The notes beneath the pieces were generated by a model. The model was not told the DNA's origin. It saw only the letters and a program-made list of their open reading frames with translations, and did no database searches. A program made the position numbers and the translations under genes. Source: Chitinophagales bacterium (GTDB lineage Bacteria > Bacteroidota > Bacteroidia > Chitinophagales > JAHQVX01). From it: a stretch of DNA of 64,000 nucleotides. Each line of letters starts with the position of its first letter. Position 1 is the stretch's first letter. Location: the NCBI GenBank assembly GCA_965215685.1, contig OZ244113.1, positions 2,927,487 through 2,991,486 on the forward strand, given 5' to 3'. This document shows positions 30,797-61,646 of the stretch, one piece after another.

Positions 30797-31126
30797 TAAA
30801 ATAACTTAACATTCTTATGGTCAAAACAACGGAACATAAATGCGGTGTTGTTCCTATCTCGTTGTAAAGCAGAAGTTTTTAGTGTACTTAGCGACTATGC
30901 CGGTAATTGCACAGATACCGATTCCGCTTGAAGCATTATTTTAACGCGAATTCGACTTAAGAAACTTTTACAGTGATTTGATTATCAATTTTTTAACCAC
31001 GAATGCACGAATTTTTTCGTTGTCAACAACCTCTGTTTCGCTTCAGTGAAACACATTAGTGCTCTTCGTTCCAAATTAATCACCAAGATTTTCGCGCTAA
31101 TTCGCAAATTCGTAGTTAATCTAATT

Positions 31127-32201
31127 GGCTGTAGTTTAATTTAGCTATTATTATCTTAGGAGTATGAAAAAAGAAGAGATAAGAACCTATTTCATGGGTC
31201 TTTCAACTGAAGATCAAGAGAATCTTCTAAGAGAACTTGAACAGGTGAAAGATGAGCATTTTCTGCCCAAATGCCAGCAAATGAGAAGACATTTGTTAAA
31301 CAACAAGCAAGGCTGTTGTGCTCATTGCGGTCACTCAAAATATGTCAAGTTTGGTATAGACAAAGGTGCACAACGCTATAAATGTAAGTCTTGCAATCGC
31401 AGTTTTACGGAATATACCGGCACTTGGATGGCAGGTATTCATAAAAAGGATAAGATAGATGATTATTTGCAGTTGATGGCAAAGGAACAGAGTTTGGACA
31501 AGATAAAGGAGAAGCTTCACATCAATAAGAAGACGGCTTTTGATTGGAGACATAAGGTGTTGTCATCTTTTGATGATAATGATACAGATAGCTTTACCGG
31601 TATTACTGAAAGCGATGAGACTTTCTTTCTACATTCAGAAAAAGGCATGGATGTAAATGATAGAAAGCCGCGTAAACGAGGCGGTTCTTCCAGCAAGAAA
31701 GGGGTTAATAATGATCATATAGCCGTCATTGTTACCCAGGATAGAAAACGACATATGGAATTAACAGTAGCCACCACCGGCAGGATAAAGAAAAAAGATA
31801 TCGCAAACTCTATTGGACATAGAGTTACAGCACAAACTATTTTGTGTACAGACTCTCATGTAAGTTATAAAGGTTTTGCCATAGACAATAATCTGGAACA
31901 TCATCCTTTAAGGGCAGATATGAAACAGAGGGTTAAGCAGGGTCTCTACCATATTCAGCATGTTAACTCAACCCATAACAGAGTGAAAAAATGGTTGGAT
32001 AATAAGTTTTGGGGAGTATCCACCAAATACTTACAGCAATACCTCAATTGGTTTAAGCTAAAACAAACGCTAAAAACCAGTAGAAACTTCCTAAATGAGT
32101 TTGCTCAAAGGTCGGTAGAAGACATTCAGGCCTATGCTAAGTACAAGGCCATACCCGACAAGTATGAACTATTAATATCAACGCAATGTTAAACTACAGC
32201 C
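31127..32201 (+). mobile_element. IS1595-family insertion sequence (1075 bp)
   Basis: Perfect 13-bp TIRs GGCTGTAGTTTAA, 8-bp TSD ATCTAATT (31119-31126 and 32202-32209), single transposase ORF. Confidence 0.93.
31164..32192 (+). CDS. IS1595-family transposase (ISXO2-like; DDN type)
   Basis: Zn ribbon CAHC...CKSC, HTH (TAFDWRHK), ESDETFF, TDSH, HIQHVNSTH, GVSTKYLQQYLNWF. Confidence 0.93.
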   Translation: MKKEEIRTYFMGLSTEDQENLLRELEQVKDEHFLPKCQQMRRHLLNNKQGCCAHCGHSKYVKFGIDKGAQRYKCKSCNRSFTEYTGTWMAGIHKKDKIDDYLQLMAKEQSLDKIKEKLHINKKTAFDWRHKVLSSFDDNDTDSFTGITESDETFFLHSEKGMDVNDRKPRKRGGSSSKKGVNNDHIAVIVTQDRKRHMELTVATTGRIKKKDIANSIGHRVTAQTILCTDSHVSYKGFAIDNNLEHHPLRADMKQRVKQGLYHIQHVNSTHNRVKKWLDNKFWGVSTKYLQQYLNWFKLKQTLKTSRNFLNEFAQRSVEDIQAYAKYKAIPDKYELLISTQC

Positions 32202-32416
32202 ATCTAATTATCTAATCCGTTGATAAACAGCACACTGTTATTTCACAAATAATCCCGCCTGCGGGATTCCTTATCCCGAACTCACGTTATTTAAGCCCTG
32301 TAAGGGCGATTCATCTTTGATGCCGGTTTAGCTTTTAAAATCGGATGTTCATTCGGGCGAGCAGGAGTTTTTTGGCTAGACAATGAAGAAAATTTTCGGA
32401 ATAGCAGTAGCTGTTG

Positions 32417-32584
32417 TGGCTGTTGCACAATTGATTTGGCAAAGAAATTTAATCCCTAAATTTCGGGACAGAAAAATTCAAAACGGAATAACCTATTGGT
32501 TTTGAGTATTTTAATTTTTCAAAAAGGAAGAAGTTCACAGCCAAATCAATTATAAAATGCTAAGCCGGGGTTGTGCAACAGCCA
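32417..32584. mobile_element. 168-bp MITE with TGGCTGTTGCACAA terminal IRs
   Basis: Perfect 14-bp TIRs, flanks CTGTTG / CTATTG (5/6), and an inner IR AATTGATTTGGC / GCCAAATCAATT. Confidence 0.7.
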
Positions 32585-32684
32585 CTATTGTTAGATTTTA
32601 TGAAGATGTATAGGCAAAACCCGTCTGCGGAACGGGCAGGAAAGAACAATTTTTAAAGTGATTCTTTTAAGTAGAAAGGGTATT

Positions 32685-33340
32685 AGTTCATTTATAGCTT
32701 TATCGACCGCTACTTATGATTATCGCGTTTTTTTTTGCGTTTAAATCGGAAATTAGGACAACCAAATCAAAAAGCCGGACAAAGGGTAAAACAATTGTGC
32801 TGAAATTTAGCTTAATGAATTTCTTAGGGGATCTTCTGGTAGTAGAAGGTTATATTCCGGCTGGCTTTTAACTCATAAAGTCAGCCGGTTTTTTTTATCT
32901 GTCTTTGCCCTGGTAACCATATAGTAATCTTTAATTCCCACTCCTAACTAAAACATTGCATGGTCGAATTTAAAAAGTCATGTAAAGGATGTCTTTTGGG
33001 CGGGATTTGGGTGAACTAACTGTTCTATCACTTCAGCGTACGCTGATATTGTAAATGTTGGTTGTTGAATCTGTTTCAGTTCATTTTTGACTTTTTCGAC
33101 CGATATTCATGTATGGCGTGTTTTTTTTGCGTTGAAGTCGAAAATCAGGACAAGTAAATCAAGAAGCCGGACAAGGGGTAAAACAATTATTCTGACATTT
33201 AACTTGATAATTTCTGAGGGGATCTTCTGAGTAGTAGAAGGTTATATTCCGGCTGGCTTTTAACTCATAAAGTCAGCCGGTTTTCTTTTGTCTGTCTTTG
33301 CCCTAATAACCATGTAATAACCTTTAATTTCCATTTCTTA
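32685..33340. repeat. About 260-bp diverged direct duplication (32685-32947 and 33078-33340)
   Basis: Offset 393 bp. Identical core GTAGTAGAAGGTTATATTCCGGCTGGCTTTTAACTCATAAAGTCAGCCGGTTTT. Includes the ALDH 3' end. Confidence 0.85.
33249..33289 (+). terminator. Terminator-like hairpin (second copy at 32857-32896)
   Basis: CCGGCTGGCTTT / AAAGTCAGCCGG 12-bp stem followed by a T-tract on the + strand. Confidence 0.45.
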
Positions 33341-34656
33341 CGAGGTGTGTATTTTAAATTTAATTCTAGCCAGGTAGGTTTATCCAAAACACTTTTGAAA
33401 TGGGAGAAGGCATCAAACCCAAATTTTCCATGATAGGATCCAATTCCGCTGGCGCCTACACCACCAAAAGGTAAGTTGCTGTTTGTAAAGTGCATTACTG
33501 CATCGTTCACCGCGCCACCGCCAAAGGAGATACTGTTTAACACCTTATCCTTTATTTGTTTTTTATTAGTAAAAACGTAGCATGCCAAGGGGCGAGGCAG
33601 GCTTTTCACCCGGTTAATGGCCTCGTCAAGGCTGTTGTACTCTATTACTGGTAGTATTGGGCCAAATATCTCATCCTTCATTATCTCATCATCAAAAGAA
33701 ACATTGTGCATCACGGTTGGACTGATGAATCGCTCATCCAAATTTATTTCACCGCCACAATAGATCTTAGATCGATCTAAAGCGGCCATTAGTCGGTTCA
33801 TGTTGCTTTGGTTTATGATCTGTACGTAGTTATCATTCTCATAGCTGTACTTTGATGCCACTATTTCTTTTTTGAGAAGTTCTAACAATTCATCCTTCTT
33901 GCTTGAATGAACAAGAATATAATCCACCGCTAAGCAGGACTGACCTGCATTGAGAAACTTTCCCCATACCAGGCGTTTTACGGCTATTTTAAGGTTGCAA
34001 CTTTGGGTGATGAAGGCTGGGCTTTTACCTCCCAACTCCAGGGAAACAGGTGTTAAGTGTTTGGCGGCTGCTTTATATACAATACGACCAACCTTTGTAC
34101 TTCCTGTAAAAAATATTTTATCGAATCTTTGTCCCAGCAATGCTGTGGTTTCCAATATACCTCCTTCAACCACCTTAAAAAATGCCGGATCGAAATTATT
34201 ATTTATTAACCCGGCCATTACCGAACTGGTAGATGAAGGAACCTCGCTTGGCTTTAGAACAACGGTATTGCCAGCAGCAATTGACGATATAGCCGGAACC
34301 AGTGACAGTTGATAGGGAAAATTCCAGGCACCAATTACCAGGCTTACACCTAATGGTTCAGGAATGGTATAACTACGTGCAGGAAAATTCAGTAAATTAG
34401 TTTGTACTTGTTTGGGTTTGGCCCAACTATTTAAATTGTTTACGGCAAGGTCAATTTCGTGGTAAATGATTCCTAACTCCGTACCATAAGTTTCAAAAAC
34501 CGACTTCTTAAAATCTTTATCTATGGCTCGGTAGAGTACCGATTCGTTCGCCTTAATTATTGGTTTAAGTTTCTTTAGCTGATCACGTCTAAACTTTATG
34601 TCTTTGGTTGTACCTGTGAAAAAGAATTCACGCTGCTTTTCTACAATTTCTCTCAC
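33265..34656 (-). CDS. Aldehyde dehydrogenase (class 3 / coniferyl-aldehyde-like)
   Basis: GAWNFPYQL, LKPSE, FFTGSTKVG, LELGGKSP, catalytic NAGQSC, DEIFGPILP, LPFGGVGASGIGSYHG. Confidence 0.93.
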   Translation of the reverse strand: MREIVEKQREFFFTGTTKDIKFRRDQLKKLKPIIKANESVLYRAIDKDFKKSVFETYGTELGIIYHEIDLAVNNLNSWAKPKQVQTNLLNFPARSYTIPEPLGVSLVIGAWNFPYQLSLVPAISSIAAGNTVVLKPSEVPSSTSSVMAGLINNNFDPAFFKVVEGGILETTALLGQRFDKIFFTGSTKVGRIVYKAAAKHLTPVSLELGGKSPAFITQSCNLKIAVKRLVWGKFLNAGQSCLAVDYILVHSSKKDELLELLKKEIVASKYSYENDNYVQIINQSNMNRLMAALDRSKIYCGGEINLDERFISPTVMHNVSFDDEIMKDEIFGPILPVIEYNSLDEAINRVKSLPRPLACYVFTNKKQIKDKVLNSISFGGGAVNDAVMHFTNSNLPFGGVGASGIGSYHGKFGFDAFSHFKSVLDKPTWLELNLKYTPRKKWKLKVITWLLGQRQTKENRLTL

Positions 34657-35108
34657 TTTTTGATATTCTTTTCATAGAGTTCAATCCAGTCTTTTACTGT
34701 CATTTTAGTCATCAATTCACCAATAAGGTCATAAGGGATATCATCCATGTACTTCAGTCTTACACAACTTTTGCCCATATCTAACTTACGCTTTGCATAT
34801 TTCGGAAATTCAGCTGTAAACCATTTGTGCATGGCCGATTGTGCATAAATTCCACTATGATAAAAACCCAAAAAGTTCTTTTGATTTGCGATGGAAGCAA
34901 ACGGAAGAGCATCTTCCGGCTTGCAATGGTAACCAGCGGGGTAAATGCTGTGCGGCACTACGTAGCTTATCATATTGTACTGGATGGTTTCTTCGAAACC
35001 CTTAGGTATGTTTTTAAGTATTGTGTCTCTTAGCCTGGTGAAGGCTGGTTTTCTTTCTTCCGGAACTGCATTGAGGTATTCCTGCACAGAGTTATATTTT
35101 TTTGGCAT
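34653..35108 (-). CDS. DUF1801 domain protein
   Basis: SVQEYLNAVPEERK...LRDTI, YHC...LPFASIANQKNF, KLDMGKSCVR...IPYDLIGEL. Confidence 0.85.
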   Translation of the reverse strand: MPKKYNSVQEYLNAVPEERKPAFTRLRDTILKNIPKGFEETIQYNMISYVVPHSIYPAGYHCKPEDALPFASIANQKNFLGFYHSGIYAQSAMHKWFTAEFPKYAKRKLDMGKSCVRLKYMDDIPYDLIGELMTKMTVKDWIELYEKNIKK

Positions 35109-35448
35109 TACATGGTATTTGAAGTCTTAAATTAGAGAAAGTTATTGAACCGCTATAGACATACGGGAAACAGTAGAACTAATTATTTACGTTTTTGTTG
35201 TAGAAATCGGTGTCTGACCGGTTTTTAGGATTGTTTCTGATATAGTATTTTGTGTTCTTGAATATATTTTCATCTTCAATTTTACTTTCGTAATACTTTG
35301 GTTGCCACGAAAAATTTGTATCAATTAGTCTGCTTTATGGTAACTGATGATTTAAACCCCCTTATGATTGACACAAGATTTTTAGCTTGAGGTCCAAATT
35401 GATTTTGGCAAATTAGGCTCACGATGCATCAATGAGAGGATAACAGCA

Positions 35449-37182
35449 TCACTTATTCGCCATGGCTATCCTTCTATAGAGTTTTAAAACTGTTTCGGGT
35501 AAATCGTTGGGTTTGGAAAGAATGCTGTAATGATTGACCCCAAACATTTGTGGCAAGTAGTACCGAGCCTGTTCCTCAATGGCAACAGCGTAGCTTTGAA
35601 TATGTTTGCTATGTAATTCCTTAATGGCTTGCTTAATGTCTTCCACGCCGTACTTTCCTTCATATCTGTCGTAGTCGTTAGGTTTGCCGTCTGATAACAA
35701 GATGACCCATTTAGCTTTAGATACGTGCTTACTCAATAAAAAACCGGCGTGCCTAATGGCCGGGCCAATACGTGTAAATCCCTGTGGTGAAATAGCTCCG
35801 ACATTTGTACGAGCTCCTGTCCACCTGTCTTTGAAATGTTTGAGTGTTACGTAAGAACAAAAGTTTCTGGTTTTAGAGAAAAAACCGTCTATCTGGAAGT
35901 CGATATCAAATTCTGAAAACACCTCGCCGAGAATGATAACGGCCTGTTTTTCAATATCAATAACACGTTGGCCGGAAATATAGCTTTCACCGGAAAGACT
36001 TAAATCGATCAGAAAGAGAATAGATAGTTCTTTTTTACGCTTTCGTCTGGAGATATATATATTCTCATCAGGGGTTACGCGCGAGTGAATATCTGTGTAC
36101 ATGTCAGTTACCTGATCCAGATCAAATTGGTCGCCCTGGCTTACTCTGTTCACCTTAGCAGATGAATTATAAAAATGGGCAAGATTTTTCTTTAAAGAGG
36201 TAATGTTCCTTTGGTTGGCTCTAACGGTATCAAGCGCATATTCACTTTTGTAAGATTTGAAAAGTAAAGGATATACACGGCAGAAATCGTTTCTGTACCG
36301 GGCTGTCTTTCCGTTCCATTCGGGGTAAGAGTAATAATGCCCTTCTTCTTTCAGAGCCTTACTTTCAGCTAAGGTAAGTTGCCCTCCAAAATCGACTTTA
36401 TAAACGGAGTGAACCACATCATCTACCCGAACGGTATGTTTTAGATTCAGTTCTTCCAAAGCGTGAGCATCATCCTTCAAATTGTCATCACCTTCAAAAT
36501 CACGCCATATATCATCAAATTCTTCTGCGGTTTCAATTTTCTCGAAATTGTGTTGTAATGTGAAATCTTCCTGCGCCTCTTTATCTACCTGAATGGTAGT
36601 CATTTCTTCTACCGGCTTGGACTCTATTTCAGTAGTAATATCATTATCGCCTGCCTTTCCTGTAATATCGTTAGCATGTTCCAGTTCATCGGGGCTGAAA
36701 AAAAGATCATCCTTCATCCACTTGCCATAGAGCCAGTAACTTTCTATTTCTGCAATATTCAATTCAGCATGCAGGGCAGGGAAGTGCTCAAACTCTTTTT
36801 TAACCGATGCAATTACTTCTGGAGCGATCTGTTTGGCTGCATATCGGGCTTCTTCGGTCTTCACATCTTGCCTTTTAAGGCGTTCTGCCGCCACGTTCTG
36901 TTGATAACTCAAATAGAAAACGCGGTAGAGATAAAACTTGAAGTTTTGTTCTAACGTCTCATAGAGATTCATCTTTTCGGGCAGATAGAAATTAAGCCCT
37001 TTTCTGCCGCCTTCGCCAATAGCAGGCATAATTTCAATGGGTTCATTGGTCAGGGCGCGGGCAATTAAGGTTAGTCGTGGCCTTACTTCATGGAGAAAAA
37101 CGGCGTGTACGTCCTCACTCTCTCGCTTTTTCTTCTTTCTCCACAGAACGAATTTCTTAAACAGTTTTTCGCTGATATCCAT
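35449..37182 (-). CDS. norD: Nitric oxide reductase activation protein (VWA domain)
   Basis: YSYPEWNG...Y, MIDAS motif LIDLSLSG, TRIGPAIRHA, LSDGKPNDYDRYEGKYGVED. Directly follows norQ. Confidence 0.9.
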   Translation of the reverse strand: MDISEKLFKKFVLWRKKKKRESEDVHAVFLHEVRPRLTLIARALTNEPIEIMPAIGEGGRKGLNFYLPEKMNLYETLEQNFKFYLYRVFYLSYQQNVAAERLKRQDVKTEEARYAAKQIAPEVIASVKKEFEHFPALHAELNIAEIESYWLYGKWMKDDLFFSPDELEHANDITGKAGDNDITTEIESKPVEEMTTIQVDKEAQEDFTLQHNFEKIETAEEFDDIWRDFEGDDNLKDDAHALEELNLKHTVRVDDVVHSVYKVDFGGQLTLAESKALKEEGHYYSYPEWNGKTARYRNDFCRVYPLLFKSYKSEYALDTVRANQRNITSLKKNLAHFYNSSAKVNRVSQGDQFDLDQVTDMYTDIHSRVTPDENIYISRRKRKKELSILFLIDLSLSGESYISGQRVIDIEKQAVIILGEVFSEFDIDFQIDGFFSKTRNFCSYVTLKHFKDRWTGARTNVGAISPQGFTRIGPAIRHAGFLLSKHVSKAKWVILLSDGKPNDYDRYEGKYGVEDIKQAIKELHSKHIQSYAVAIEEQARYYLPQMFGVNHYSILSKPNDLPETVLKLYRRIAMANK

Positions 37183-37190
37183 GGCAAAAC

Positions 37191-37973: not shown

Positions 37974-38011
37974 TTAGACGATATGCGTTCTGCCTAACAA
38001 TTATACAACTC

Positions 38012-39376: not shown

Positions 39377-39388
39377 GATTTCGGGGTT

Positions 39389-40582: not shown

Positions 40583-41354
40583 TCGTCAGGGTGAGCTCGC
40601 CTGAATGACTTAGTCGGGCAGGCTTGCTAACGTCATGGCGAGCCTGACGAACCATGAGACCCTATTTGATCTCTCTTTGACTTTTAATTGCATGTTTTCA
40701 ATCTGTGCACAAACCTTCTTCAGAGTCTCTCTAAAACTCCAAATTTTAGTAGAATTGTGTTACGAGTCGAAGACTCTGAAGAAGCCTTCGCTTCGGCTTC
40801 GATCAGCTCAGGGTGACGTCGTGTCGACATCTTCGTCATGGTGAGCTTGACGAACCATGAGACCTACACTATAGAATAGGACAATACAAGTCTCACCCTT
40901 CGTCAAGCTCAGGGTGACGCCGTGTCAACATCTTCGTCATGTTGAGCTTGACGAACCATGAGTTCTGTTAACCGTATTGATCTCTTCGTCATGGTGAGCT
41001 TGACGAACCATGAAACCTGTTAACCGTATTGATCTCTTCGTCATGGTGAGCCTGACGAACCATGAGACGGGCACCCCAAAACAAAACAATTCACATCTCA
41101 CCCTTCGTCAAGCTCAGGGTGACGTCATGTCAACATTACTAATCGCATCGGAATCTTCGTCATGGTGAGCCTGACGAACCATGAGATCCTATTTGATCTC
41201 TGTTTGACTTTTTATTGCATGATTTCAATCTGTGCACAAACCTTCTTCAGAGCCTCTCTAAAACTTCAAATTTTAGTAAAAATGTGTTACGAGTCGAAGA
41301 CTCTGAAGAAGCCTTCACTTCGGCTTCGCTCAGTGCAGGCTGGCTCAGGGTGAC
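40583..41354. repeat. REP/BIME-like mosaic of palindromic units
   Basis: Six 27-bp CGTCATGGTGAGC(T/C)TGACGAACCATGA units at 40631, 40834, 40935, 40987, 41039 and 41158. Partner units CACCCTTCGTCAAGCTCAGGGTGACG. A roughly 185-bp segment occurs twice (about 40631-40817 and 41158-41354). Confidence 0.88.
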
Positions 41355-49298: not shown

Positions 49299-50610
49299 CA
49301 TTCCTGTCCTAAATAATTTTCAATCTTAAAAAATAGGTTCCACAACCCTTATAAACAGGCTTAGATTTCGTTATTTAAAATTTAGAACCCCCTGAAGTGA
49401 TTTTGGTGGCGGTTTTTCGGGCTTTTGAAATGGATTGTTTAGCCATTGTAGTAGATCAATTTTCACAAAGCAGTTGAGCCTGATAAAAGCTATTAGATCG
49501 GACAAATTCCACTTGAATTTTTAAGTATTTGAGCAATAATATGGTTGTCAGAGCCGTCCATATTTGAATCATTACCGCATTTTCACTTGTACCGATAAAG
49601 GTTTTAATGTGCGTTAATTGCTTGATGTCTCTGAAGAATATCTCAATCTGCCATCGCTGCTTATACAACTGCCCTATAGTTTGAGCTGCCCACTTGAAAT
49701 TATTGGTAATCAGTTCTATTACTTGCTCATTTTTTTCGTCCCTCACCGCTACTCTGCGAAGTTTTTCAGGATACTTTTCTTTTGACTGTGCATGAAGTAG
49801 TTCAATCTCCTGGTCTATAAGTATGTGTTGAGCGTGCTTTTGAGGCAGTTCCCGTTCTTTTACTTGCCGATATCGAAGATTGTCTTTATGTCTAATAACG
49901 AAATAAACATCTCTGCTGTCCCAAACCTTGAGCATAGGGAAGTCATTGTAATACCTATCGGCTACAATTACTGATCCGGCTTGCAAGGGAATACTTTTTG
50001 CCCCTTTATTATCACCCACTTTGCCATCGGTAATGTTTACATAAACCGGTAGTTTACTGTCGTAATCGAGCAATGTGTGTAGCTTAATGGCCCCTTTGGT
50101 GGTTCTGAATTTTGCCCAGTCAAATAAGGATAAGCACAAGCTAACTATGGTTGAATCCAACAAATAAACAGGCACTTTTATGCGTAGGTTTATCCGTTTG
50201 CCCTTAATCTGCTGTCCTAATTGTTGAAGTAAGAGAAAATAAAAATCTTTAAACAAGGTGTAATCTCTGTTTTTATTTTGATAGCTGATAGAAGATTTGC
50301 TTGGTGCCCGTTGTATGCCCAAATGATTTAAGTTGCCCGTGGCTGAACGCAAACCGTTAGAAATATCCCGAACAGATAAACTGTGGGCAAAATGGCAAAA
50401 CAGCATAGAAACCAGGTGTGTCCAGCTATCAAATCCTTTGTTATGCTTGTCAGTTTCTTTTTTAACAACTATTTTTTTGAAATTTACTCGATCTATTAGT
50501 GATATAATCTGAGAAAATAATGTGAAATTTGACATGGAGGTTTTGTTTAAAATCAACTCGAAATTATTCGAGAAAACTTAATCTCCATCTTTTTATTTAG
50601 GACGGGATTG
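49299..50610 (-). mobile_element. IS4-family insertion sequence (about 1312 bp)
   Basis: 18-bp IRs CATTCCTGTCCTAAATAA / TTATTTAGGACGGGATTG (16/18). No flanking direct repeat is visible. Confidence 0.8.
49371..50535 (-). pseudogene. IS4-family transposase (DUF4372 + DDE), frameshifted near the C-terminus
   Basis: LLDSTIV, KLHTLLD, VADRYY, YKQRWQIEIFFR. After KYLK the reading frame diverges, and the family-like tail KWNLSDLIAFIRLNCFVKIDLLQWLNNPF...NFK* continues in another frame to a stop at 49371. Confidence 0.8.
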
Positions 50611-50640
50611 GTTTTGTCCGATTTATTGGGGGCTAGACCA

Positions 50641-51264
50641 CCTGTTTTGAGAAAAGTTCTTGGAATGAATTTAGGGTAAAAGGTGAAATTTGGTAAAGCA
50701 CACAATCCTCAGAAGAAATAAAGAAAAATTATTTCAATAACCCTCCTGTTTTGAGAAAAGTTCTTGGAATGAATTTAGGGTAAAAGGTGAAATTTGGTAA
50801 AGCGCATAATCCTCAAAAGAAATAATGAATAATTATTTCAATAATCATCCTGTTTTGAGAAAAGTTCTTGGAATGAATTTAGGGTAAAAGATGAAATTTG
50901 GTAAAGCGCATAATCCTCAAAAGAAATAATGAATAATTATTTCAATAACCCTCATGTTTTGAGAAAAGTTCTTGCAATGAATTTAGGGTAAAAGGTGAAA
51001 TTTGGTAAAGCACACAATCCTCAGAAGAAATAATGAATAATTATTTCAATAACCCTCCTGTTTTGAGAAAAGTTCTTGGAATGAATTTAGGGTAAAAGGT
51101 GAAATTTGGTAAAGCGCATAATCCTCAAAAGAAATAATGAATAATTATTTCAATAACCATCCTGTTTTGAGAAGAATTCTTGGAATGAATTTAGGGTAAA
51201 AGGTGAAATTTGGTAAAGCGCACAATCCTCAAAAGAAATAATGAATAATTATTTCAATAATCAC
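50641..51264. repeat. Tandem array, 6 x 104 bp
   Basis: Units start at 50641, 50745, 50849, 50953, 51057 and 51161, with a few substitutions per unit. No spacers; period not divisible by 3. Confidence 0.95.
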
Positions 51265-51283
51265 TATTATTGACCTCACATTT

Positions 51284-51357
51284 CGGGGTGTAGCTTAGCC
51301 CGGTAAAGCGCACGTCTGGGGGGCGTGAGATCGGAGGTTCAAATCCTCTCACCCCGA
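51284..51357 (+). tRNA. tRNA-Pro(GGG)
   Basis: CGGGGTGTAGCTTAGCCCGGTAAAGCGCACGTCTGGGGGGCGTGAGATCGGAGGTTCAAATCCTCTCACCCCGA; anticodon arm CACGT-CT GGG GG-GCGTG. Confidence 0.94.
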
Positions 51358-51505: not shown

Positions 51506-52399
51506 AAGACTCCAGTATCAAGAATCAAGACTTTTCAATATCAATAGCAATGGCAATGACAATGGCAATCAAAATCAAAATGAAATCAAAACTCTCTTAC
51601 ACTCTGTGGTTAATACCAATTAGTATTGTGACTTTTCGGGACAGGAATCAAGACTTTTCAACTTCCATTTTTTTCTACATGCTCACAGCACCGGGCGGAG
51701 TTGTCACCTCCGGTCATGCCGGAGACAACTCCGGCCAAACGGCTATGGATTTTTAAAACCGAAAATAAAAACAGCGTAATATGAGATCTTTCCCCCGCCT
51801 TGCGGGATCAGGATGACGCAGTTTTTATTTTTTCGTTCTTCCCAAAGACTAATCACTCTGTAAACTCTAATTAAAACCTGAAATATCTGCGCAAATCAGC
51901 CAGCCCGACTGGTCATTCTGGCGGTCGAAATCTGCGGGAAAGGCTTTGCGCCGTTGCGCCGTGGCGAGAAAAAGAAACTTCAATCATAATAGTGCTAAGG
52001 CACAGGATTTAAGAATTGAGATTTTTAGACTGAAGACTCCAGTATCAAGAATCTGGAATCAAGAATCAAGACTTTTCAATATCAATGGCAATAGCAATGA
52101 CAATGGCAATATCAATGGCAATCAAAATCAAAATGAAAATCAAAACTCTCTTACACTCTGTGGTTAATACCAATTAGTATTGTGACTTTTAGAGACAGGA
52201 ATCAAGACTTCTCAACTTCCATTTTTTTCTACATGTTCACAGCACCGGGCGGAGTTGTCACCTCCGGTCATGCCGGAGACAACTCCGGCCAAACGGCTAT
52301 GGATTTTTAAAACCGAAAATAAAAACAGCGTAATATGAGATCCTTCTCCCGCCGAGCGGGATCGGGATGACGCAGTTCTTATTTTCTTGTCCTGCCCAA
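51506..52399. repeat. Two roughly 340-370-bp direct repeats (51506-51845 and 52033-52399)
   Basis: Near-identical blocks with a variable CAAT(G/A)(G/A/T) hexamer tract, a long bulged hairpin (51697-51732) and a REP-like GAGATC...GGATGAC end. Confidence 0.9.
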
Positions 52400-52638: not shown

Positions 52639-52707
52639 ATGAAAAAAGTAATTAGCATAAATAACTGGTGGTGGTACATTCCAAAATCAAACGGAGTGAC
52701 CCATTAG
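52639..52707 (+). CDS. trpL: trp operon leader peptide
   Basis: MKKVISINNWWWYIPKSNGVTH*, with three tandem TGG codons at 52666-52674, 65 bp before trpE. Confidence 0.85.
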   Translation: MKKVISINNWWWYIPKSNGVTH

Positions 52708-52732
52708 TATTGTGCTGTACTAATAATATTTG

Positions 52733-52761
52733 AAGCCTGTCGCTCCGCGGCGGGCTTTTTT
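52733..52761 (+). terminator. trp attenuator terminator
   Basis: AAGCCTGTCGC / GCGGCGGGCTT stem plus a T-tract. Alternative antiterminator pairing CGGAGTGAC (52692-52700) with GTCGCTCCG (52739-52747). Confidence 0.8.
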
Positions 52762-52772
52762 AATAACAGTGC

Positions 52773-54772: not shown

Positions 54773-54775
54773 GCT

Positions 54776-55768
54776 ATGAAGGATCTGCTGCAAAAACTAT
54801 ATCATCATCAAACACTAGAGAGCACCGAGGCCTTTGATCTGCTAAAAGCCATAGCTGATGGCACTTTAAATCCTGAGCAAACGGTATCTGTAATGACGAT
54901 TTTGGTTATGCGCCCGGTGAAAACCGAGGAGTTGCTGGGTTTTCAAAAAGCCTTGTTGGAAATGGCTATTCCTTTCGATACATCGGGCAGGCAAACCATT
55001 GATGTTTGCGGTACGGGCGGCGATGGCAAAAACTCCTTTAATATTTCCACCCTGGCAGCATTTGTTATTGCCGGGGCAGGCTACAAAGTGGTAAAGCATG
55101 GCAACTATGGCGTGTCTTCGCTGTGCGGATCAAGCAATGTATTGGAGCAAATGGGCATCAGTTTTACCAACGATACTAACAAGTTGAACCAATGTCTTAA
55201 CGAGAGCAATATTTGTTTTCTGCACGCCCCCTTATTCCACCCGGCTATGAAAGCAGTGGCCCCTTTACGCCGCGCTTTGGGCATACGAACCTTTTTTAAT
55301 ATGTTGGGTCCGCTGGTTAATCCCGCTGAGCCCAGCCACCAGCTAACCGGTGTGTATGATCTTACACTGGCCCGCCAATACAACGCCATACAAAGTATGC
55401 ATGGCAGGCATTATTCTATTGTGCACAGCTTAGACGGTTTCGATGAGATATCGCTTACATCACCGGTAAAATTTTATAGTGATAAGGGCGAAGGAACCTT
55501 GCATCCGCATGATTTTGGTTTCAAGCCCTGTTCAGAAGAATCTATTTCAGGAGGAAATACATTGGAGGAAGCAGGAAATATTTTCCGAAATGTTTTAACG
55601 GGGAAAGGCAGCAAAGCACAGCAAAATGTGGTATTGGCCAATGCGGCTACAGCCATTAAGTGTATGGAGCCTGAGTGGAATTTACAGGAATGTATGGCAT
55701 GTGCCAGAGAAGCATTGCTTTCAGGAAAGGCCATGAAAAGTTTAGAAAAAATGAGGGCACTTAATTAG
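54776..55768 (+). CDS. trpD: Anthranilate phosphoribosyltransferase
   Basis: DVCGTGGDGKNSFNIST, KHGNYGVSSLCGSS, RTFFNMLGPLVNP, DGFDE. Confidence 0.96.
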   Translation: MKDLLQKLYHHQTLESTEAFDLLKAIADGTLNPEQTVSVMTILVMRPVKTEELLGFQKALLEMAIPFDTSGRQTIDVCGTGGDGKNSFNISTLAAFVIAGAGYKVVKHGNYGVSSLCGSSNVLEQMGISFTNDTNKLNQCLNESNICFLHAPLFHPAMKAVAPLRRALGIRTFFNMLGPLVNPAEPSHQLTGVYDLTLARQYNAIQSMHGRHYSIVHSLDGFDEISLTSPVKFYSDKGEGTLHPHDFGFKPCSEESISGGNTLEEAGNIFRNVLTGKGSKAQQNVVLANAATAIKCMEPEWNLQECMACAREALLSGKAMKSLEKMRALN

Positions 55769-55775
55769 AACTCCA

Positions 55776-56588
55776 ATGAAAGCATTAGAAGATATTATAC
55801 GCTATAAAAAAATTCAGGTAAAGGAGATGAAAGCACGTATTCCGGTTAAAGAACTGGAACAGAGCCAGTACTTTGTACAACCCTGTGTATCCTTAGCTAA
55901 TGCTATACAAAATAAAGCTAAACATGGTATAATAGCCGAGTTTAAGCGCCGTTCTCCATCGCGTGGAGATATCCATGCCAATGCCCGTCCGGCTGAGATC
56001 TGTACAGGCTATATGCAGGCCGGAGCTTCGGCACTATCAATACTTACCGATACACCAAGTTTTGGCGGGAGCAATGTAGATGTGGTTGAAGCGAGAGGGC
56101 GAAATACCGGCCCCATTTTGCGCAAGGAATTTATAATTGACGAATACCAGATAACTGAGGCGAAATCCATAGGTGCAGATGCGGTGTTGCTTATCGCGGC
56201 TATTCTTACGAAAAAAGAAATAGGTACGTTTACCGAAATAGCACAATCACTCGGCTTAGAAGTTTTGTTGGAGATACATGAAGAAAATGAACTGGATAAA
56301 ATAACGGAAAAGGCTGATCTGATTGGCGTAAACAGCCGTTGCCTGAAAACGATGACTACGCTTAGAGACCGCCATGTACAACTCGTTGATCAGCTTCCGA
56401 AGGAAAGTGTAAAAATCGCTGAAAGTGGTATTAGTACTGCCCTGGATGCTTTTCAACGACAACAGATGGGATATGATGGCTTTCTTATCGGAACCGAGTT
56501 TATGAGTAATAATGATCCGGCGAAAGCCTGTGCGCAATTCATTAATGAACTGCAAACTATGAAGGTAAGAGCTTTGAAAAAAATCTAA
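55776..56588 (+). CDS. trpC: Indole-3-glycerol phosphate synthase
   Basis: IIAEFKRRSPSRG, LSILTD...FGGS, LRKEFII..YQI.EA, AESGI, FLIGTEFM. Confidence 0.95.
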   Translation: MKALEDIIRYKKIQVKEMKARIPVKELEQSQYFVQPCVSLANAIQNKAKHGIIAEFKRRSPSRGDIHANARPAEICTGYMQAGASALSILTDTPSFGGSNVDVVEARGRNTGPILRKEFIIDEYQITEAKSIGADAVLLIAAILTKKEIGTFTEIAQSLGLEVLLEIHEENELDKITEKADLIGVNSRCLKTMTTLRDRHVQLVDQLPKESVKIAESGISTALDAFQRQQMGYDGFLIGTEFMSNNDPAKACAQFINELQTMKVRALKKI

Positions 56589-56592
56589 TGCA

Positions 56593-57219
56593 ATGAAATT
56601 GAAAGTCTGCGGCATAGATGTAGAAAAGACAGCCATTGAAGTGGTGTTGACGGCCGATGTGTTGGGTTTTATCTTTTATAAAAACTCACCACGTAATGTG
56701 GCCGAAAGTACTTATTCGGTTATAAAGAGTATGACCGGAGTGCGAAAAGCAGGTGTATTTGTCGATGAAGATTTGGATACCATCAGACAAGTGGCAGGGA
56801 AATGCGAATTAACACATATTCAATTGCATGGCAACGAACTGCCTTCGCAATGTGCAGAACTGAGATACGATTACAAAGTGATAAAGGCCATTTCCGTGGA
56901 TGATTCTCTGGATGTTGACGTGCTGTGGGCTTATGAAGGAAATGTAGATTATTTTCTGTTCGACACAAAAACAGAGCTCAAAGGTGGTAGCGGTAAGCAA
57001 TTCAATTGGAACGTGTTGGATCAGTATGACCTGGACATTCCGTTTTGGTTAAGCGGAGGAATAGGGCCAAAAGATGCGAATGCCGTTTCGGCCTTTAACC
57101 ATAACATGTGTATCGGCGTGGACATCAACAGCCGTTTTGAGATTTCGCCCGGAGAGAAAGATGTAAACGCCATTATTCAGTTTAAAAAAGAACTAATCGC
57201 TTATGAAAACCGGAATTAG
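56593..57219 (+). CDS. trpF: Phosphoribosylanthranilate isomerase
   Basis: KLKVCGI, GFIFY..SPR, IQLHGNE, LFDT...GGSGKQFNW, WLSGGI, VDINSRFEISPG.KD. Confidence 0.94.
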   Translation: MKLKVCGIDVEKTAIEVVLTADVLGFIFYKNSPRNVAESTYSVIKSMTGVRKAGVFVDEDLDTIRQVAGKCELTHIQLHGNELPSQCAELRYDYKVIKAISVDDSLDVDVLWAYEGNVDYFLFDTKTELKGGSGKQFNWNVLDQYDLDIPFWLSGGIGPKDANAVSAFNHNMCIGVDINSRFEISPGEKDVNAIIQFKKELIAYENRN

Positions 57220-58402
57220 AGCAGATGAAAGGGGATTTTTTGGTGAATTTGGTGGGGCATTTATCCCTGAAATGCTGCATGCCAACATCGCTCAATTGCA
57301 GAAAAACTATTTGAAAATCGTTTCGGGAGAAAAATTTCAGCATCGACATAGCGGATTGTTACAAAATTACTGCGGAAGACCGACACCCTTAACGTATGCT
57401 AAAAATCTTTCAGGAGAATTGGGCTATAAACTGTTTTTGAAGCGCGAAGACCTAAACCACACTGGCTCGCATAAGTTGAATAATGCTTTGGGTCAGGCAC
57501 TAATAGCCATGGAATTGGGAAAGAAACGCATAATTGCCGAAACAGGTGCCGGACAGCACGGTGTGGCTACGGCTACGGCCTGTGCCTTGCTGGGCCTGGA
57601 ATGTGTGGTGTATATGGGTAGCAAGGATGTGGCACGGCAAGCACCTAATGTAAAGCGAATGAAGATGCTCGGTGCCGGTGTTGTGCCTGTAACTTCGGGT
57701 TCGCAAACCTTGAAAGATGCCACCAACGAGGCCATTCGTGATTGGATTAACAACCCCCTTGATACGCATTACATTATCGGCTCTACGGTGGGGCCGCATC
57801 CATACCCCGAAATGGTGGCTTACTTGCAATCGGTGATAAGCAAAGAGTTAGCACAACAGATCACGGACTATGGCAAGGAGAACCCTCACGCCATTGTGGC
57901 CTGTGTAGGCGGCGGAAGCAATTCTGCCGGAGCCTTTTATCATTTTATAAAGAATGAAAAATGCCGTCTAATTGCGGTTGAAGCTGCAGGAAAAGGATTG
58001 CGATCGGGACAAACAGCAGCCACGGCTACGTTGGGAAATACAGGCATACTCCATGGTAGTAAAACCCTGTTATTACAGGATGAATACGGACAGATCAATG
58101 AAGCGCACTCCATTTCTGCCGGACTGGACTACCCGGGAATTGGTCCCATGCACGCCCATCTAATTCGCAAAGGCAGGATGGAGGTGCTTTCGGCAACCGA
58201 TGATGAAGCCATACAAGCGGCTGCCTGGATGGCGGAAAGGGAAGGTATTATTCCGGCTTTGGAAACGGCACACGCTATTGCCAAATTGAAGGAGATCAAT
58301 TGCAGGAAAGATGATGTGGTTGTTTTGTGTCTTTCAGGACGGGGAGATAAGGATATGGCAACCTATTCAAAACATTTGTTTAAAACAGACGGCAATGAAT
58401 AG
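57203..58402 (+). CDS. trpB: Tryptophan synthase beta chain
   Basis: LKREDLNHTGSHKLNN, AETGAGQHGVATA, ACVGGGSN, SISAGLDYPGIGP, LSGRGDKD. Confidence 0.98.
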   Translation: MKTGIRADERGFFGEFGGAFIPEMLHANIAQLQKNYLKIVSGEKFQHRHSGLLQNYCGRPTPLTYAKNLSGELGYKLFLKREDLNHTGSHKLNNALGQALIAMELGKKRIIAETGAGQHGVATATACALLGLECVVYMGSKDVARQAPNVKRMKMLGAGVVPVTSGSQTLKDATNEAIRDWINNPLDTHYIIGSTVGPHPYPEMVAYLQSVISKELAQQITDYGKENPHAIVACVGGGSNSAGAFYHFIKNEKCRLIAVEAAGKGLRSGQTAATATLGNTGILHGSKTLLLQDEYGQINEAHSISAGLDYPGIGPMHAHLIRKGRMEVLSATDDEAIQAAAWMAEREGIIPALETAHAIAKLKEINCRKDDVVVLCLSGRGDKDMATYSKHLFKTDGNE

Positions 58403-58562
58403 TGGAAATGGTTATTTGAATTTCCCGTTGCTCGCGCCCGCCAAAATGAAAGAATATATTCTTTCGGGCTGGCAGATTAACGCAGATACTATGAAAAATC
58501 TGCGAACATTAGCGGGATCTGCGGGCATAGTAAATCGGTTATTTCCTTAAACGGTTAGTATA
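58403..58562. repeat. Palindromic REP-like insert between trpB and trpA
   Basis: GCAGATTAACGCAGAT...ATCTGCGAACATTAGCGGGATCTGCGGG, the same family as ATCTGCGCAAAT...ATCTGCGGG near 51885-51940. Confidence 0.55.
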
Positions 58563-59303
58563 ATGAGCAAACTACTGAACATCTATTTTACGGCGGGTTT
58601 TCCGGAGTTGAATGCCACTTCGGATATTTTATTGGCTTTGCAGCATTCAAAGGCAGATATTATTGAGATAGGCCTACCTTTTTCAGATCCGCTGGCAGAC
58701 GGGCCAACCATTCAGCAAAGCAGCAAAATTGCCTTAGATAACGGCATGAACACCGATGTGCTTTTTAACCAATTACAATCCTGTAAAGAACAGATAACGA
58801 AGGATGTTTATATCATGTGTTATTTGAATCAGGTGATGGTCTATGGCTTTGAGCGTTTTTGCCTTAGGGCTGTGGAAACAAGTGTAACCGGACTAATTCT
58901 GCCCGATCTTCCGCCCGATCATTACGAAGAAAACTACAGGCAAATTGTAGAGCAAGCGAGCTTAAAAATGGTGTTTCTCATTACGCCTGAAACTTCGCCG
59001 GACAGGGTAGAGCGGGCTGTAAAAATGAGTACGGGCTTTGTGTATTTTGTATCAAGCCATGCTACTACAGGTGCAGAAAAAACTAAAATAAACACAGATT
59101 ATTTCCAAAAAATAAAAAAAGTAGAAACCGATGTTCCCAAGCTCATCGGCTTTGGTATTTCAGACCATGCGGGATTTCGGCAGGCCGGCCAATATGCCGA
59201 TGGAGCCATTGTTGGCTCGGCGTTTATACGGTATATTAAAAATGGTTTTAGCCGAAAGCATATTGAGGCTTTTGTAAGAGAGATAAGGGGGAATGATGTG
59301 TAA
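58563..59303 (+). CDS. trpA: Tryptophan synthase alpha chain
   Basis: YFTAGFP, IIEIGLPFSDPLADGPTIQ, LILPDLP, FLITPET, GFGIS, DGAIVGSAF. Confidence 0.96.
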   Translation: MSKLLNIYFTAGFPELNATSDILLALQHSKADIIEIGLPFSDPLADGPTIQQSSKIALDNGMNTDVLFNQLQSCKEQITKDVYIMCYLNQVMVYGFERFCLRAVETSVTGLILPDLPPDHYEENYRQIVEQASLKMVFLITPETSPDRVERAVKMSTGFVYFVSSHATTGAEKTKINTDYFQKIKKVETDVPKLIGFGISDHAGFRQAGQYADGAIVGSAFIRYIKNGFSRKHIEAFVREIRGNDV

Positions 59304-59409
59304 GCCAACAAGGCTATAATTTAACGTGAGTTCGGGATAAGGAATCCCGCAGGCGGGATTATTTGTGAAATAACAATGTGCTGTTTATCAACGGATTAGA
59401 TAATTAGAT

Positions 59410-60479
59410 GGCTGTAGTTTAACATTGCGTTGATATTAATAGTTCATACCTGTCGGGTATGGCCTTGTACTTAGCATAGGCCTGAATGTCTTCTACCGAC
59501 CTTTGAGCAAACTCATTTAGGAAGTTTCTACTGGTTTTTAGCGTTTGTTTTAGCTTAAACCAATTGAGGTATTGCTGTAAGTATTTGGTGGATACTCCCC
59601 AAAACTTATTATCCAACCATTTTTTCACTCTGTTATGGGTTGAGTTAACATGCTGAATATGGTAGAGACCCTGCTTAACCCTCTGTTTCATATCTGCCCT
59701 TAAAGGATGATGTTCCAGATTATTGTCTATGGCAAAACCTTTATAACTTACATGAGAGTCTGTACACAAAATAGTTTGTGCTGTAACTCTATGTCCAATA
59801 GAGTTTGCGATATCTTTTTTCTTTATCCTGCCGGTGGTGGCTACTGTTAATTCCATATGTCGTTTTCTATCCTGGGTAACAATGACGGCTATATGATCAT
59901 TATTAACCCCTTTCTTGCTGGAAGAACCGCCTCGTTTACGCGGCTTTCTATCATTTACATCCATGCCTTTTTCTGAATGTAGAAAGAAAGTCTCATCGCT
60001 TTCAGTAATACCGGTAAAGCTATCTGTATCATTATCATCAAAAGATGACAACACCTTATGTCTCCAATCAAAAGCCGTCTTCTTATTGATGTGAAGCTTC
60101 TCCTTTATCTTGTCCAAACTCTGTTCCTTTGCCATCAACTGCAAATAATCATCTATCTTATCCTTTTTATGAATACCTGCCATCCAAGTGCCGGTATATT
60201 CCGTAAAACTGCGATTGCAAGACTTACATTTATAACGTTGTGCACCTTTGTCTATACCAAACTTGACATATTTTGAGTGACCGCAATGAGCACAACAGCC
60301 TTGCTTGTTGTTTAACAAATGTCTTCTCATTTGCTGGCATTTGGGCAGAAAATGCTCATCTTTCACCTGTTCAAGTTCTCTTAGAAGATTCTCTTGATCT
60401 TCAGTTGAAAGACCCATGAAATAGGTTCTCTTCTTTTTTCATACTCCTAAGATAATAATAGCTAAATTAAACTACAGCC
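59410..60479 (-). mobile_element. IS1595-family insertion sequence, copy 2 (1070 bp)
   Basis: Same GGCTGTAGTTTAA TIRs and the same 8-bp TSD (AATTAGAT on + strand at 59402-59409 and 60480-60487). Confidence 0.93.
59419..60442 (-). pseudogene. IS1595 transposase with a 5-bp deletion after codon 4 (frameshift; could restart at ATG 60417)
   Basis: Copy 1 reads GAAGAGATAAGAACC, copy 2 reads GAAGAGAACC, so the original ATG 60442 is out of frame with the rest. Confidence 0.8.
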
Positions 60480-60656
60480 AATTAGATTAACTACGAATTT
60501 GCGAATTAGCGCGAAAATCTTGGTGATTAATTTTGAACGAAGAGCACTAATGTGTTTCGCTGAAGCGAAACAGAGGTTGTTGACAACGAAAAAATTCGTG
60601 CATTCGTGGTTAAAAAATTGATAATCAAATCACTGTAAAAGTTTCTTACGTCGAAT

Positions 60657-61646
60657 TCACGTTAATTTACTAAGTCTCTTCAATTTACCTCTATACGCCT
60701 GTAAATAATTTCTTTTCGTTCTTTCATCCAAATATGAAGCTAGCACAAGCTTTTCAACCCGGTGAGACATAGACAGCATCGCACTAAGACTTCGGCCTGC
60801 TATACCTTTTTTTATGCTCGCATTTTCTGCCAGTACCCTGAATTGTTCATTTATTTTTCCCCGACTCAAAGTACCGGGCAAAAGCCCGTCATCCAATGCA
60901 AAATCTTTATCATCAATATGAATTTTGGTATTCAGTAAGTCGTATGCCGGACTTAGCCTATAATCGCCAAGTGGAGTTTCTAACAACGAAAAATTCTTAA
61001 GGTGGGCATCGCCGTTTGAAAACAGATAGTTAAATATTAATATTTTAAAAAGTTTAATCGATTCAGATGGGTAAACGAGTAAATAGTTTTTCATTAGATC
61101 AAAAAGTTCCAGGTAATTTCCCTTATACTTGTAATGTTCACCATGTGTTTGAGGCGTCTTTCCGGCTAACGAGGCAAAATCTTCCTGTGCGAGCTTTGAG
61201 CCATCTTGTTTTAAATCAAATCTTTTGGTTATATATGCGGCTGCACCGTTCTTAAAAAAAATAAGTGCGTTTTCTGCTGTTTCAATTCCAAACACCTGTC
61301 TCGCAATTTGCATGGTCAGATGTTCATTTGCAGGCATTTGATCCGATTTTTTTCCTGCCTGTGGAATCGGCTTAAGTATATGTGTTCCTTGCTCATTTTC
61401 ATTCGTTAATCTTAACTTGTTTTTTTCAAGAAGTACTGAAAATTTTTCCTGAACTCCTGAAATGGATATTCTTTTTCTGTTCTCCAGGAAAAGCTCATCT
61501 GTTTGCGCATTTGAGGAAGGGGAATAATATGGCAATACATGATGAACTTTTTTACCATTAAATACTCTTTTAAGGCATGTTCTGCTATAAGATGTAAATC
61601 CTTCGGCGAGCGTTCCCGGGCAACGCTCTGTTTTCTGAATTGACAT
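60657..61646 (-). CDS. HipA-family Ser/Thr kinase toxin (HipT-like, lacks the N-terminal subdomain)
   Basis: Gly-rich loop ISISGVQEKFS, ENEHL-like ANEHLTMQ, YITKRFD, EDFA, catalytic NGDAHLKNFS, LSPAYDLL. Confidence 0.9.
   Translation of the reverse strand: MSIQKTERCPGTLAEGFTSYSRTCLKRVFNGKKVHHVLPYYSPSSNAQTDELFLENRKRISISGVQEKFSVLLEKNKLRLTNENEQGTHILKPIPQAGKKSDQMPANEHLTMQIARQVFGIETAENALIFFKNGAAAYITKRFDLKQDGSKLAQEDFASLAGKTPQTHGEHYKYKGNYLELFDLMKNYLLVYPSESIKLFKILIFNYLFSNGDAHLKNFSLLETPLGDYRLSPAYDLLNTKIHIDDKDFALDDGLLPGTLSRGKINEQFRVLAENASIKKGIAGRSLSAMLSMSHRVEKLVLASYLDERTKRNYLQAYRGKLKRLSKLT

Follow-up and report, generated by a model that had tools for sequence, protein, structure and literature searches.

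How does one and the same insertion sequence (IS) come to lie twice at the identical position of the same short repeat? The question is raised by a stretch of 64,000 nucleotides (in the following, the window; C1:2927487-2991486, i.e., contig OZ244113.1) from a Chitinophagales bacterium, whose genome forms one closed contig of 3.2 Mb. Here, an IS1595-family IS is found inside a miniature inverted-repeat transposable element (MITE) in two copies of opposite orientation. We think it likely that the IS reached this site by recurrent, targeted insertion of a young and active IS1595 element into a hot spot of an older IS982-type MITE. This landing-pad model is strongly supported because the same site is occupied in 6/13 copies of the MITE and in both orientations, the haplotypes of IS and MITE are incongruent, a homologous site in a second MITE family (MITE-2) was hit as well, and a generic target consensus is inadequate to explain the choice. 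A sequence-only reading of the window had weighed this model against a MITE that mobilises the IS as its cargo, with a mild lean to the former. That lean is firmed up by the occupancy (including one inverted copy), by MITE arms that are about 17-fold more diverged than the IS, by the differing haplotypes of the two window copies and by the MITE-2 hit.

The two window copies and their components

We compared the window copies by exact alignment of both regions. They share a block of 1.34 kb with 99.1% identity, located at 30944-32287 (+) and 59324-60662 (-). That is, the pair forms inverted repeats of 1.34 kb each with 27 kb between them, a match far beyond chance. The alignment reproduces to the base the coordinates that had been read from the letters, together with the respective difference counts. 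The MITE arms differ at 5/261 bp (copy 1/copy 2: 30947 C/T, 30957 T/G, 31047 T/C, 31072 C/A, 32235 C/T), while the IS shows two substitutions (31376 C/T, 32161 A/G) plus a 5-bp deletion (31177-31181 lost in copy 2). Also the described target duplications hold: the 8-mer ATCTAATT borders the IS on both sides in both copies, and the MITE is flanked by a 7-bp duplication of its own, which is perfect at copy 2 (TAATTTA) and imperfect at copy 1 (TATTTTA / TATTTAA). The features of both copies are as follows, where P denotes a further filled MITE outside the window.

30944..32287, plus strand: copy 1 (Q), a 261-bp IS982-type MITE of haplotype A with the IS inside, in total 1344 bp
30937..30943, no strand: left outer target duplication of copy 1, TATTTTA; its original partner now lies beside copy P
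32288..32293, no strand: right outer target duplication of copy 1, TATTTA, equal to the left flank of copy P
30944..31126, plus strand: left MITE arm of copy 1, 183 bp, with terminal inverted repeat ACGCGAATTCGACTTAAGAA; the 8-bp target ATCTAATT at 31119-31126 closes the arm
31104..31119, plus strand: motif GCAAATTCGTAGTTAA immediately upstream of the hot spot, common to the sister family MITE-2
31127..32201, plus strand: IS1595-family IS of copy 1, 1075 bp, haplotype H1, with 13-bp perfect inverted repeats GGCTGTAGTTTAA at 31127-31139 and 32189-32201
31164..32192, plus strand: transposase gene of copy 1, 342 amino acids, comprising a zinc-binding domain at the N-terminus and an IS1595 DDE domain
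32202..32287, plus strand: right part of copy 1, with the second target ATCTAATT at 32202-32209 followed by the right MITE arm at 32210-32287 (78 bp), ending CGAACTCACGT
59324..60662, minus strand: copy 2 (R), the MITE in consensus haplotype B with the IS inside, in total 1339 bp
59317-59323 and 60663-60669, no strand: outer duplication of copy 2, perfect 7-bp TAATTTA
59410..60479, minus strand: IS of copy 2, 1070 bp, haplotype H3, with the 5-bp deletion near 60430 and T at IS column 249 (0-based)
59402-59409 and 60480-60487, no strand: 8-bp IS target duplication of copy 2
59419..60417, minus strand: transposase open reading frame of copy 2, 332 amino acids

Insertion sequences of the IS1595 family carry terminal inverted repeats and generate 8-bp target duplications. 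The inner element has perfect 13-bp inverted repeats that begin with GGCT, and perfect 8-bp target duplications are present in 12/12 full genomic copies. Its 342-residue transposase matches the models NF033547 (170.5 bits, cut-off 75) and PF12762 (44 bits, cut-off 27), while residues 52-83 match NF050000 (IS1_IS1595_Zn; 41.5 bits, cut-off 28). All 12 genomic copies reach an IS1595 transposase score of 171.7 bits. This includes copy 2, whose reading frame, owing to the 5-bp deletion, begins 10 codons further on at another in-frame ATG; the remaining frame is open without stops and retains the full score. By these profile matches and termini, the inner element is classified as an IS1595-family insertion sequence.

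The outer element (183 + 78 = 261 bp) is without coding capacity and ends in ACG(C/T)GAATTCG and CGAACTCACGT. Its 13 genomic copies are flanked by duplications of 5-8 bp, all of which begin with TA. Elements of the IS982 family have 5'-AC ends with the consensus AC(N)6T(N)5TT, and their direct repeats vary in length (Fayad et al. 2020, PMC7335449). Both MITE ends start with 5'-AC and have T at position 9, and positions 15-16 are TA compared to TT in the published consensus. The genome also contains a resident IS982 element in five near-identical copies of 1058 bp, which encodes a 300-residue protein (NF033520, 272 bits, cut-off 130) and produces 5-bp duplications of the form TA..TA. Its ends ACCTGAGTTCG / ACCTGAGTTCGATT match the MITE ends in 10/11 bases and diverge after base 11. 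An autonomous element that combines the MITE's own ends with a transposase was not found within the 3.2-Mb genome, where only the resident IS982 lineage, different beyond base 11, is present; the MITE is also absent from 40 related genomes.

We scanned metagenomes with a degenerate 20-mer, ACGTGARTTCGRSRTAAGRA, that covers either end of the MITE, and obtained more than 120 matches. Two of the matching elements, L119 (1015 bp) and L161 (998 bp), bear ACGTGAGTTCGAC(G/A)TAAGRA at both ends and encode transposases of the IS982 family (NF033520, 250 and 231 bits, cut-off 130) that are 50% identical to the one of the resident IS982. Several metagenomic MITEs of 130-207 bp share the same ends and have 6-8-bp duplications starting with TA. 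Because the resident IS982 ends, the metagenomic IS982 elements with the same ends and the published direct repeats of varying length all fit, the outer element is assigned, on its termini, to the non-coding IS982-type MITEs. The likeness to IS982 ends, which the sequence-only reading had put forward, is thereby borne out.

Two inverted 1.34-kb repeats 27 kb apart could also reflect a mis-assembled duplicate or a 27-kb composite transposon bracketed by the two copies. Unique sequence surrounds either copy, private substitutions and a separate 7-bp duplication are found for each of them, and the assembly resolves 12 IS copies in one closed contig. Regarding a composite transposon, the intervening DNA holds ordinary housekeeping genes (trpA, an adjacent PALP-domain pyridoxal-phosphate-dependent enzyme, hisI/E), and no duplication surrounds the pair as a unit, i.e., TAATTTA is found at copy 2 but TATTTTA / TATTTA at copy 1. 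We give next to no credence to either explanation.

Occupancy and divergence of the site across the genome

Genome-wide, we identified 12 near-identical full copies of the IS, one fragment of 334 bp and one old remnant. The MITE (MITE-1) is present in 13 copies, of which 6 are filled at ATCTAATT, 6 are empty and one carries a filler insert. Five filled copies have the IS in the same orientation, i.e., 842767, 2397037, 2923478 (P), 2958430 (Q, copy 1) and 2986810 (R, copy 2), where P (2923478-2924821) is located 2.7 kb ahead of the window start. The sixth, at 2428710, contains the IS (2428796) inverted; here, the flanks read AATTAGAT, which is the same 8-mer in reverse complement. Each filled MITE has its own outer duplication and occupies a different locus. 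The other 6 IS copies lie outside the MITE-1 site, most within other repeats, with the duplications TAATTAAA, TTAATTTG, AATGTTTT, AAAAAGTA, ACAAGCTA and TAAATTAA. The sequence-only reading had expected the landing-pad model to fail if IS copies were found at unrelated sites. Such copies exist, but the model does not fall with them: the test was too strict, as the preference is strong without being exclusive.

One MITE copy and one relative of the MITE show peculiarities at or next to the hot spot. The copy with filler (1241490-1241820) has a 70-bp insert at a distance of 4 bp from the right side of the hot spot (5 bp when BLAST boundaries are used); it is composed of 37 bp identical to 1621208-1621244 and 35 bp that are 94% identical to 1641057-1641091. 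The insert resembles templated filler DNA and is possibly the repair scar of an excised IS. A MITE relative of 79% identity at 1196839-1197011, which begins with ACATGAGTTCGACGTAAG, loses its homology exactly at the hot spot (...TTCGTAGTTAA) and is unrelated beyond.

We then related the divergence of the MITE arms to that of the IS. Among the six filled copies, 12 segregating sites within 261 bp of arms face 3 events within 1075 bp of IS (odds ratio 17, Fisher p = 6.5e-7). For the window pair alone, the respective numbers are 5/261 and 3/1075 (p = 0.009), and copy 2986810 and the inverted copy are identical in the IS while their arms differ at 5 positions. Because the mean pairwise difference is much lower in the IS (its 12 copies average 1.1 per 1075 bp) than in the MITEs (3.7-5.2 per 261 bp), the IS burst is, by this estimate, roughly ten times younger than the MITE burst.

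The IS copies fall into three haplotypes: H1 is found in 7 copies including copy 1, H2 in two solo copies, and H3, marked by the unique 5-bp deletion, in copy 2 (forward MITE), the inverted MITE copy and one solo site. With regard to the arms, copy 1 shows the derived haplotype A (T14, T104, C129) and copy 2 the consensus. The empty MITE at 265533 shares the derived states T14 and C129 with three filled haplotype-A copies. These haplotypes mark the window copies as probable separate insertions into already diverged MITEs and not as one self-copying composite.

These data bear directly on the cargo model, according to which the IS entered a MITE only once and an IS982 transposase then copied the 1344-bp composite via the MITE ends. 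Such copying accounts for the outer duplication of each filled MITE at its separate locus, for the common IS orientation of 5/6 filled copies, for the three copies that combine arm haplotype A with IS haplotype H1, and for the close similarity of P and Q, which differ at only 2/1344 positions (1 arm, 1 IS); the recently active resident IS982, with ends matching in 10/11 bases, would be at hand as a source of transposase. A composite should nevertheless diverge evenly along its length, while the arms are found to be about 17 times more variable than the IS. Neither can composite transposition produce the inverted copy, nor does it fit that neither the IS haplotype nor the arm haplotype is shared by the window copies, that an empty copy nests within the filled haplotype-A lineage, or that 2397037 and P differ only within the 78-bp right arm (see below). 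Furthermore, the ends of the resident IS982 part from those of the MITE after base 11, the genome contains no autonomous element that bears the latter ends, and both the MITE-2 hit and a second hot spot would be left unexplained. We therefore regard the cargo model as very improbable.

A different route to the same pattern is homology. That is, one or two real insertions might have been spread by ectopic gene conversion into empty MITEs via the 183-bp and 78-bp arms, which predicts the same site, the same orientation and recipients that retain their distal arm polymorphisms. Recombination between filled copies is evident at P and Q. Their outer duplications are swapped (Q: left TATTTTA, right TATTTA; P: left TATTTA, right TATTTTA), precisely as an inversion between two inverted copies should leave them, and the interval between them (genome 2924822-2958429, i.e., starting 2.7 kb ahead of the window and ending at window base 30943) has a reversed GC skew of -0.038 compared to a replichore mean of +0.016 (standard deviation 0.027), which is among the lowest 1.2% of equally long windows. 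This points to a probable 34-kb inversion by crossing-over between the inverted copies P and Q, and the outer duplication of copy 1 would be imperfect because this inversion swapped the duplications.

Copy 2397037 provides a second case. Its left arm is that of group A, and the 4 positions that set it apart from P are confined to the 78-bp right arm, the other 1258 bp being identical. Within the MITE, the chance of such a right-arm-only distribution is (78/261)^4 = 0.008. Because the four differences all fall in this arm, they indicate that 2397037 is a mosaic from recombination or gene conversion.

For the IS to pass between haplotypes A and B, on the other hand, a conversion tract could reach no further than 54 bp to its left and 26 bp to its right. 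Neither the inverted IS nor the hit in MITE-2 nor the second hot spot can come from gene conversion, which also leaves the presence of H3 and H1 in the same arm background unexplained without a further event. Homology-driven spread is hence, in our assessment, unlikely as the main source of the filled copies.

How many insertions does the landing-pad model then require? The inverted copy requires its own insertion at the same 8 bp, because recombination of filled copies swaps arms only and cannot flip the IS relative to both arms. A conservative count from orientation thus gives two independent MITE-1 insertions (forward and inverted) plus the MITE-2 hit. When considering the arm haplotypes A and B, the comparison suggests at least three independent hits, since conversion between A and B would have to end as close to the IS as given above (positions 129 and 209 were not co-converted). 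The IS haplotypes found in lineage B suggest four insertions. Overall, at least 2-3 and probably more hits are independent, while one or two copies may be owed to movement as cargo or to gene conversion.

Several observations weigh against recurrent targeting. Half of the IS copies (6) reside at other sites. Among the MITE-borne copies, 5/6 share one orientation and 3 the same arm haplotype, as composite transposition or gene conversion predicts. The pairs P-Q and 842767-2986810 (1 arm difference, 2 IS events) do not separate the models by arm versus IS divergence, and a uniform IS between diverging arms could in principle also be maintained by gene conversion among the 12 IS copies. Finally, the motif upstream of the hot spot is insufficient alone, given that only 1/16 MITE-2 copies is filled compared to 6/13 for MITE-1 (p = 0.026).

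Related hot spots and target recognition

The motif GCAAATTCGNNGTTAA occurs 29 times in the genome, i.e., 13 times in MITE-1 and 16 times in the homologous MITE-2. The latter family has a length of about 280 bp, at least 16 copies and the ends ACGTGAATAATGG, and it shares internal modules with MITE-1. The solo IS at 1500965 lies inside a MITE-2 copy, 8 nucleotides after the ...GTT of GCAAATTCGCGGTT (the respective distance in MITE-1 is 9 nucleotides), and has its own duplication AAAACATT. The insertion flanks in MITE-1 and MITE-2 are identical at 19/22 positions, and 0/300 shuffles are as good. Neither composite transposition nor arm-guided conversion from MITE-1 can yield an insertion at this corresponding position of MITE-2. 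The hit thus implicates the conserved module ahead of the site in target choice, without the module being sufficient for it. IS982-type MITE families other than MITE-1, among them MITE-2 and a repeat of about 130-165 bp (see below), are spread genome-wide, e.g., at 120394-120624, 285536-285766 and 2280268-2280497.

A second hot spot is given by the IS copies 639942-641016 and 3075520-3076594, which are inserted in opposite orientations at the same (C/T)AAATTAA. The underlying repeat is about 60-85 bp long and present in five genomic copies, 2/5 of which are filled. No motif of significant similarity is common to both hot spots. The site at 3075520 also shows a 22-bp tandem duplication of the target region, and the repeat itself adjoins the MITE at 2430048 as well as copy P.

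Could the general target preference of such transposases suffice? As a control, we used related IS1595 transposases (59-70% identity) that are multi-copy in two Flavobacteriales metagenome-assembled genomes (MAGs), where 13 and 28 insertions were found with no site reused. Their targets follow a weak palindromic consensus (T-W-A / WWNNNNWW / T-W-A), and a weight matrix was derived from the relatives' 38 insertions with a perfect 8-bp duplication. By this matrix, the hot spot belongs to the best 0.5% of genome positions; 15,364 positions score equally or higher, and it ranks only 5th within the MITE itself. Thus, we reject the generic family consensus as an explanation. The matrix assigns the hot spot an expected share of 1.3e-4 per insertion, such that the probability of at least 2 of 8 insertions at this place is 4.5e-7, or 4.5e-5 when a 10-fold survivorship in non-coding DNA is allowed. 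Because this probability is at most 4.5e-5 under generic target preference, recurrent insertion is beyond chance.

Two other candidate signals were rejected. The transposases of IS30 and IS911 target sequences that resemble their own element ends, and GTAGTTAAT near the hot spot is loosely similar to the IS end GTAGTTTAAT. In ungapped and gapped comparisons, this likeness is no better than in controls: the level of 9/17 is reached by 80% of random sites, and in a further comparison 161/500 and 280/500 shuffles were as good. As to a possible hairpin or cruciform structure of the target, folding of the MITE is somewhat better than that of its shuffles (z = -3.5), with the target in no distinctive loop. 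A metagenome scan for the 35-mer of the empty site, as a sign of population polymorphism, resulted in 0 hits. One additional association of both families was observed in a Bacteroidales MAG contig (JANTGF010000182.1; L079 1381-2545), where an IS982-type terminus (TA followed by ACGTGAGTTCGGAATAG) is located 52 bp upstream of an IS1595 relative of 55% identity that has no matching 8-bp duplication. It could be a second case of an IS1595 element in an IS982-type MITE or a chance finding; one such case is close to the number expected by chance.

Given these observations, we propose the following mechanism. The hot spot consists of the 8 bp ATCTAATT, which follow immediately on the motif GCAAATTCGTAGTTA. 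Either the transposase itself or a host protein that binds at this place would recognise a local feature of the MITE module, either of sequence or of DNA shape, and the cut would be placed 8-9 bp downstream of ...CGNNGTT. Insertions at this place would persist since the MITE is presumably neutral DNA. Homologous recombination among filled copies would subsequently reshuffle them, as suggested by the 34-kb inversion (copy 1 with P) and the mosaic at 2397037.

A stricter version holds that the conserved module TAATTNGCAAATTCGNNGTTAA plus the following sequence is a true sequence-specific recognition site for an IS1595-family transposase, which would make this a case of near site-specific, programmable-looking integration by a DDE transposase. 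We consider this version quite unlikely. If true, old IS982-type MITEs would act as genomic flypaper that absorbs IS insertions and shields genes. A still stronger variant would have the MITE modules kept because they trap IS elements.

Surroundings and relation to known systems

The genomic settings of the two window copies are distinct. Copy 1 is located in a 2.6-kb repeat-rich intergenic stretch between the genes of a GH20 hexosaminidase and an aldehyde dehydrogenase, while copy 2 lies between two convergent genes. The neighbouring features are:

30636..30800, plus strand: short repeat just upstream of copy 1, ending ...CATTATTCACGT, i.e., an IS982-type terminus; about 130-165 bp, more than 20 genomic copies
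58563-59303, no strand given: trpA, convergent to the HipA_C-domain gene, ending 21 bp from the other MITE end of copy 2
60657..61646, minus strand: HipA_C-domain gene, for which the MITE terminus (60657-60662) provides the last sense codon and the stop; ...SKL-stop becomes ...SKLT-stop, with the TGA taken from ACGTGA

Further repeats in the window are found at 50534-51353, 51506-52399, 40631-41342 and 32839-33341. They comprise a 104-bp tandem array (at least 6 overlapping 300-nucleotide copies at 104-bp spacing), repeats of 263 bp and 80 bp about 550 bp apart, 52-bp units with TCTTCGTCATGGTGAGCTTGACGAACCATGAG, and a 393-bp-spaced duplication that closes in terminator-like hairpins. The genome as a whole is very rich in IS elements, with about 40 repeat intervals in which two subfamilies of IS1634-family elements (about 1.65 kb) are found, besides IS1182, IS91-like, IS982 and IS1595 elements. 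These are frequently nested in each other, e.g., the IS1595 copy 1628275 is located within an IS1634 element, about 25 bp from its end, and the MITE-2 copy at 242302 contains an IS982 element.

What does the landing-pad model imply? The IS1595 family, and a transposon-derived MITE as its target, would join the few insertion sequences known to favour extragenic repeats as landing sites. The genome provides an unusually clean natural experiment, since empty, filled, inverted, scarred and sister-family sites are present within one closed contig, next to sister genomes without hot-spot behaviour; because this series of site states coexists, the recognition determinant should be directly mappable. 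The nested repeats may also seed rearrangements, given that the probable 34-kb inversion is traceable to two filled copies. For annotation, identical IS-in-MITE composites are a reason for caution, as they are not necessarily mobile units.

The components themselves compare as follows. With the IS1595 family (ISfinder; NF033547), the inner element shares the transposase match, the N-terminal zinc domain, the size of about 1.07 kb, the inverted repeats and the 8-bp duplication. Its relatives in the two Flavobacteriales genomes have the same architecture of inverted repeats and 8-bp duplication but insert at unrelated AT-rich sites with a weak palindromic consensus, whereas a hot spot is seen only for the element or genome studied here. 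The outer element agrees with the IS982 family and its MITEs (PMC7335449) in the 5'-AC ends, the T at position 9, the variable-length duplications and the IS982 transposases found between the same 20-bp ends. In contrast to that family description, it is non-coding, has TA instead of TT at positions 15-16 and lacks a cognate autonomous partner in its genome.

Within open-access literature, we found neither an IS1595-family hot spot in a MITE nor a published site preference of this family. IS1397, an IS3-family element, is an established case of repeat targeting. It inserts, like ISKpn1, into bacterial interspersed mosaic elements (BIME) or repetitive extragenic palindromic (REP) sequences, and ISPpu9, ISPpu10, ISPsy8, ISPa11, ISRm22 and ISRm19 target REP sequences (Tobes and Pareja 2006, PMC1525189; ISPpu9, PMC12288879), with ISPpu9 being a member of the IS110 family (PMC12288879). 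By analogy, the IS1595 insertions in the MITE fit this known class, i.e., the case appears clear and not unprecedented. As in the REP/BIME systems, an autonomous IS is repeatedly found at one position of a short, multi-copy, non-coding repeat that offers a harmless landing pad, and filled and empty repeats are present side by side in one genome. The differences concern both partners. Here, the IS belongs to the IS1595 family and its target is an IS982-type, transposon-derived MITE instead of a REP palindrome; the insertions occur in both orientations, half of the copies are located elsewhere, and no hairpin is evident at the target.

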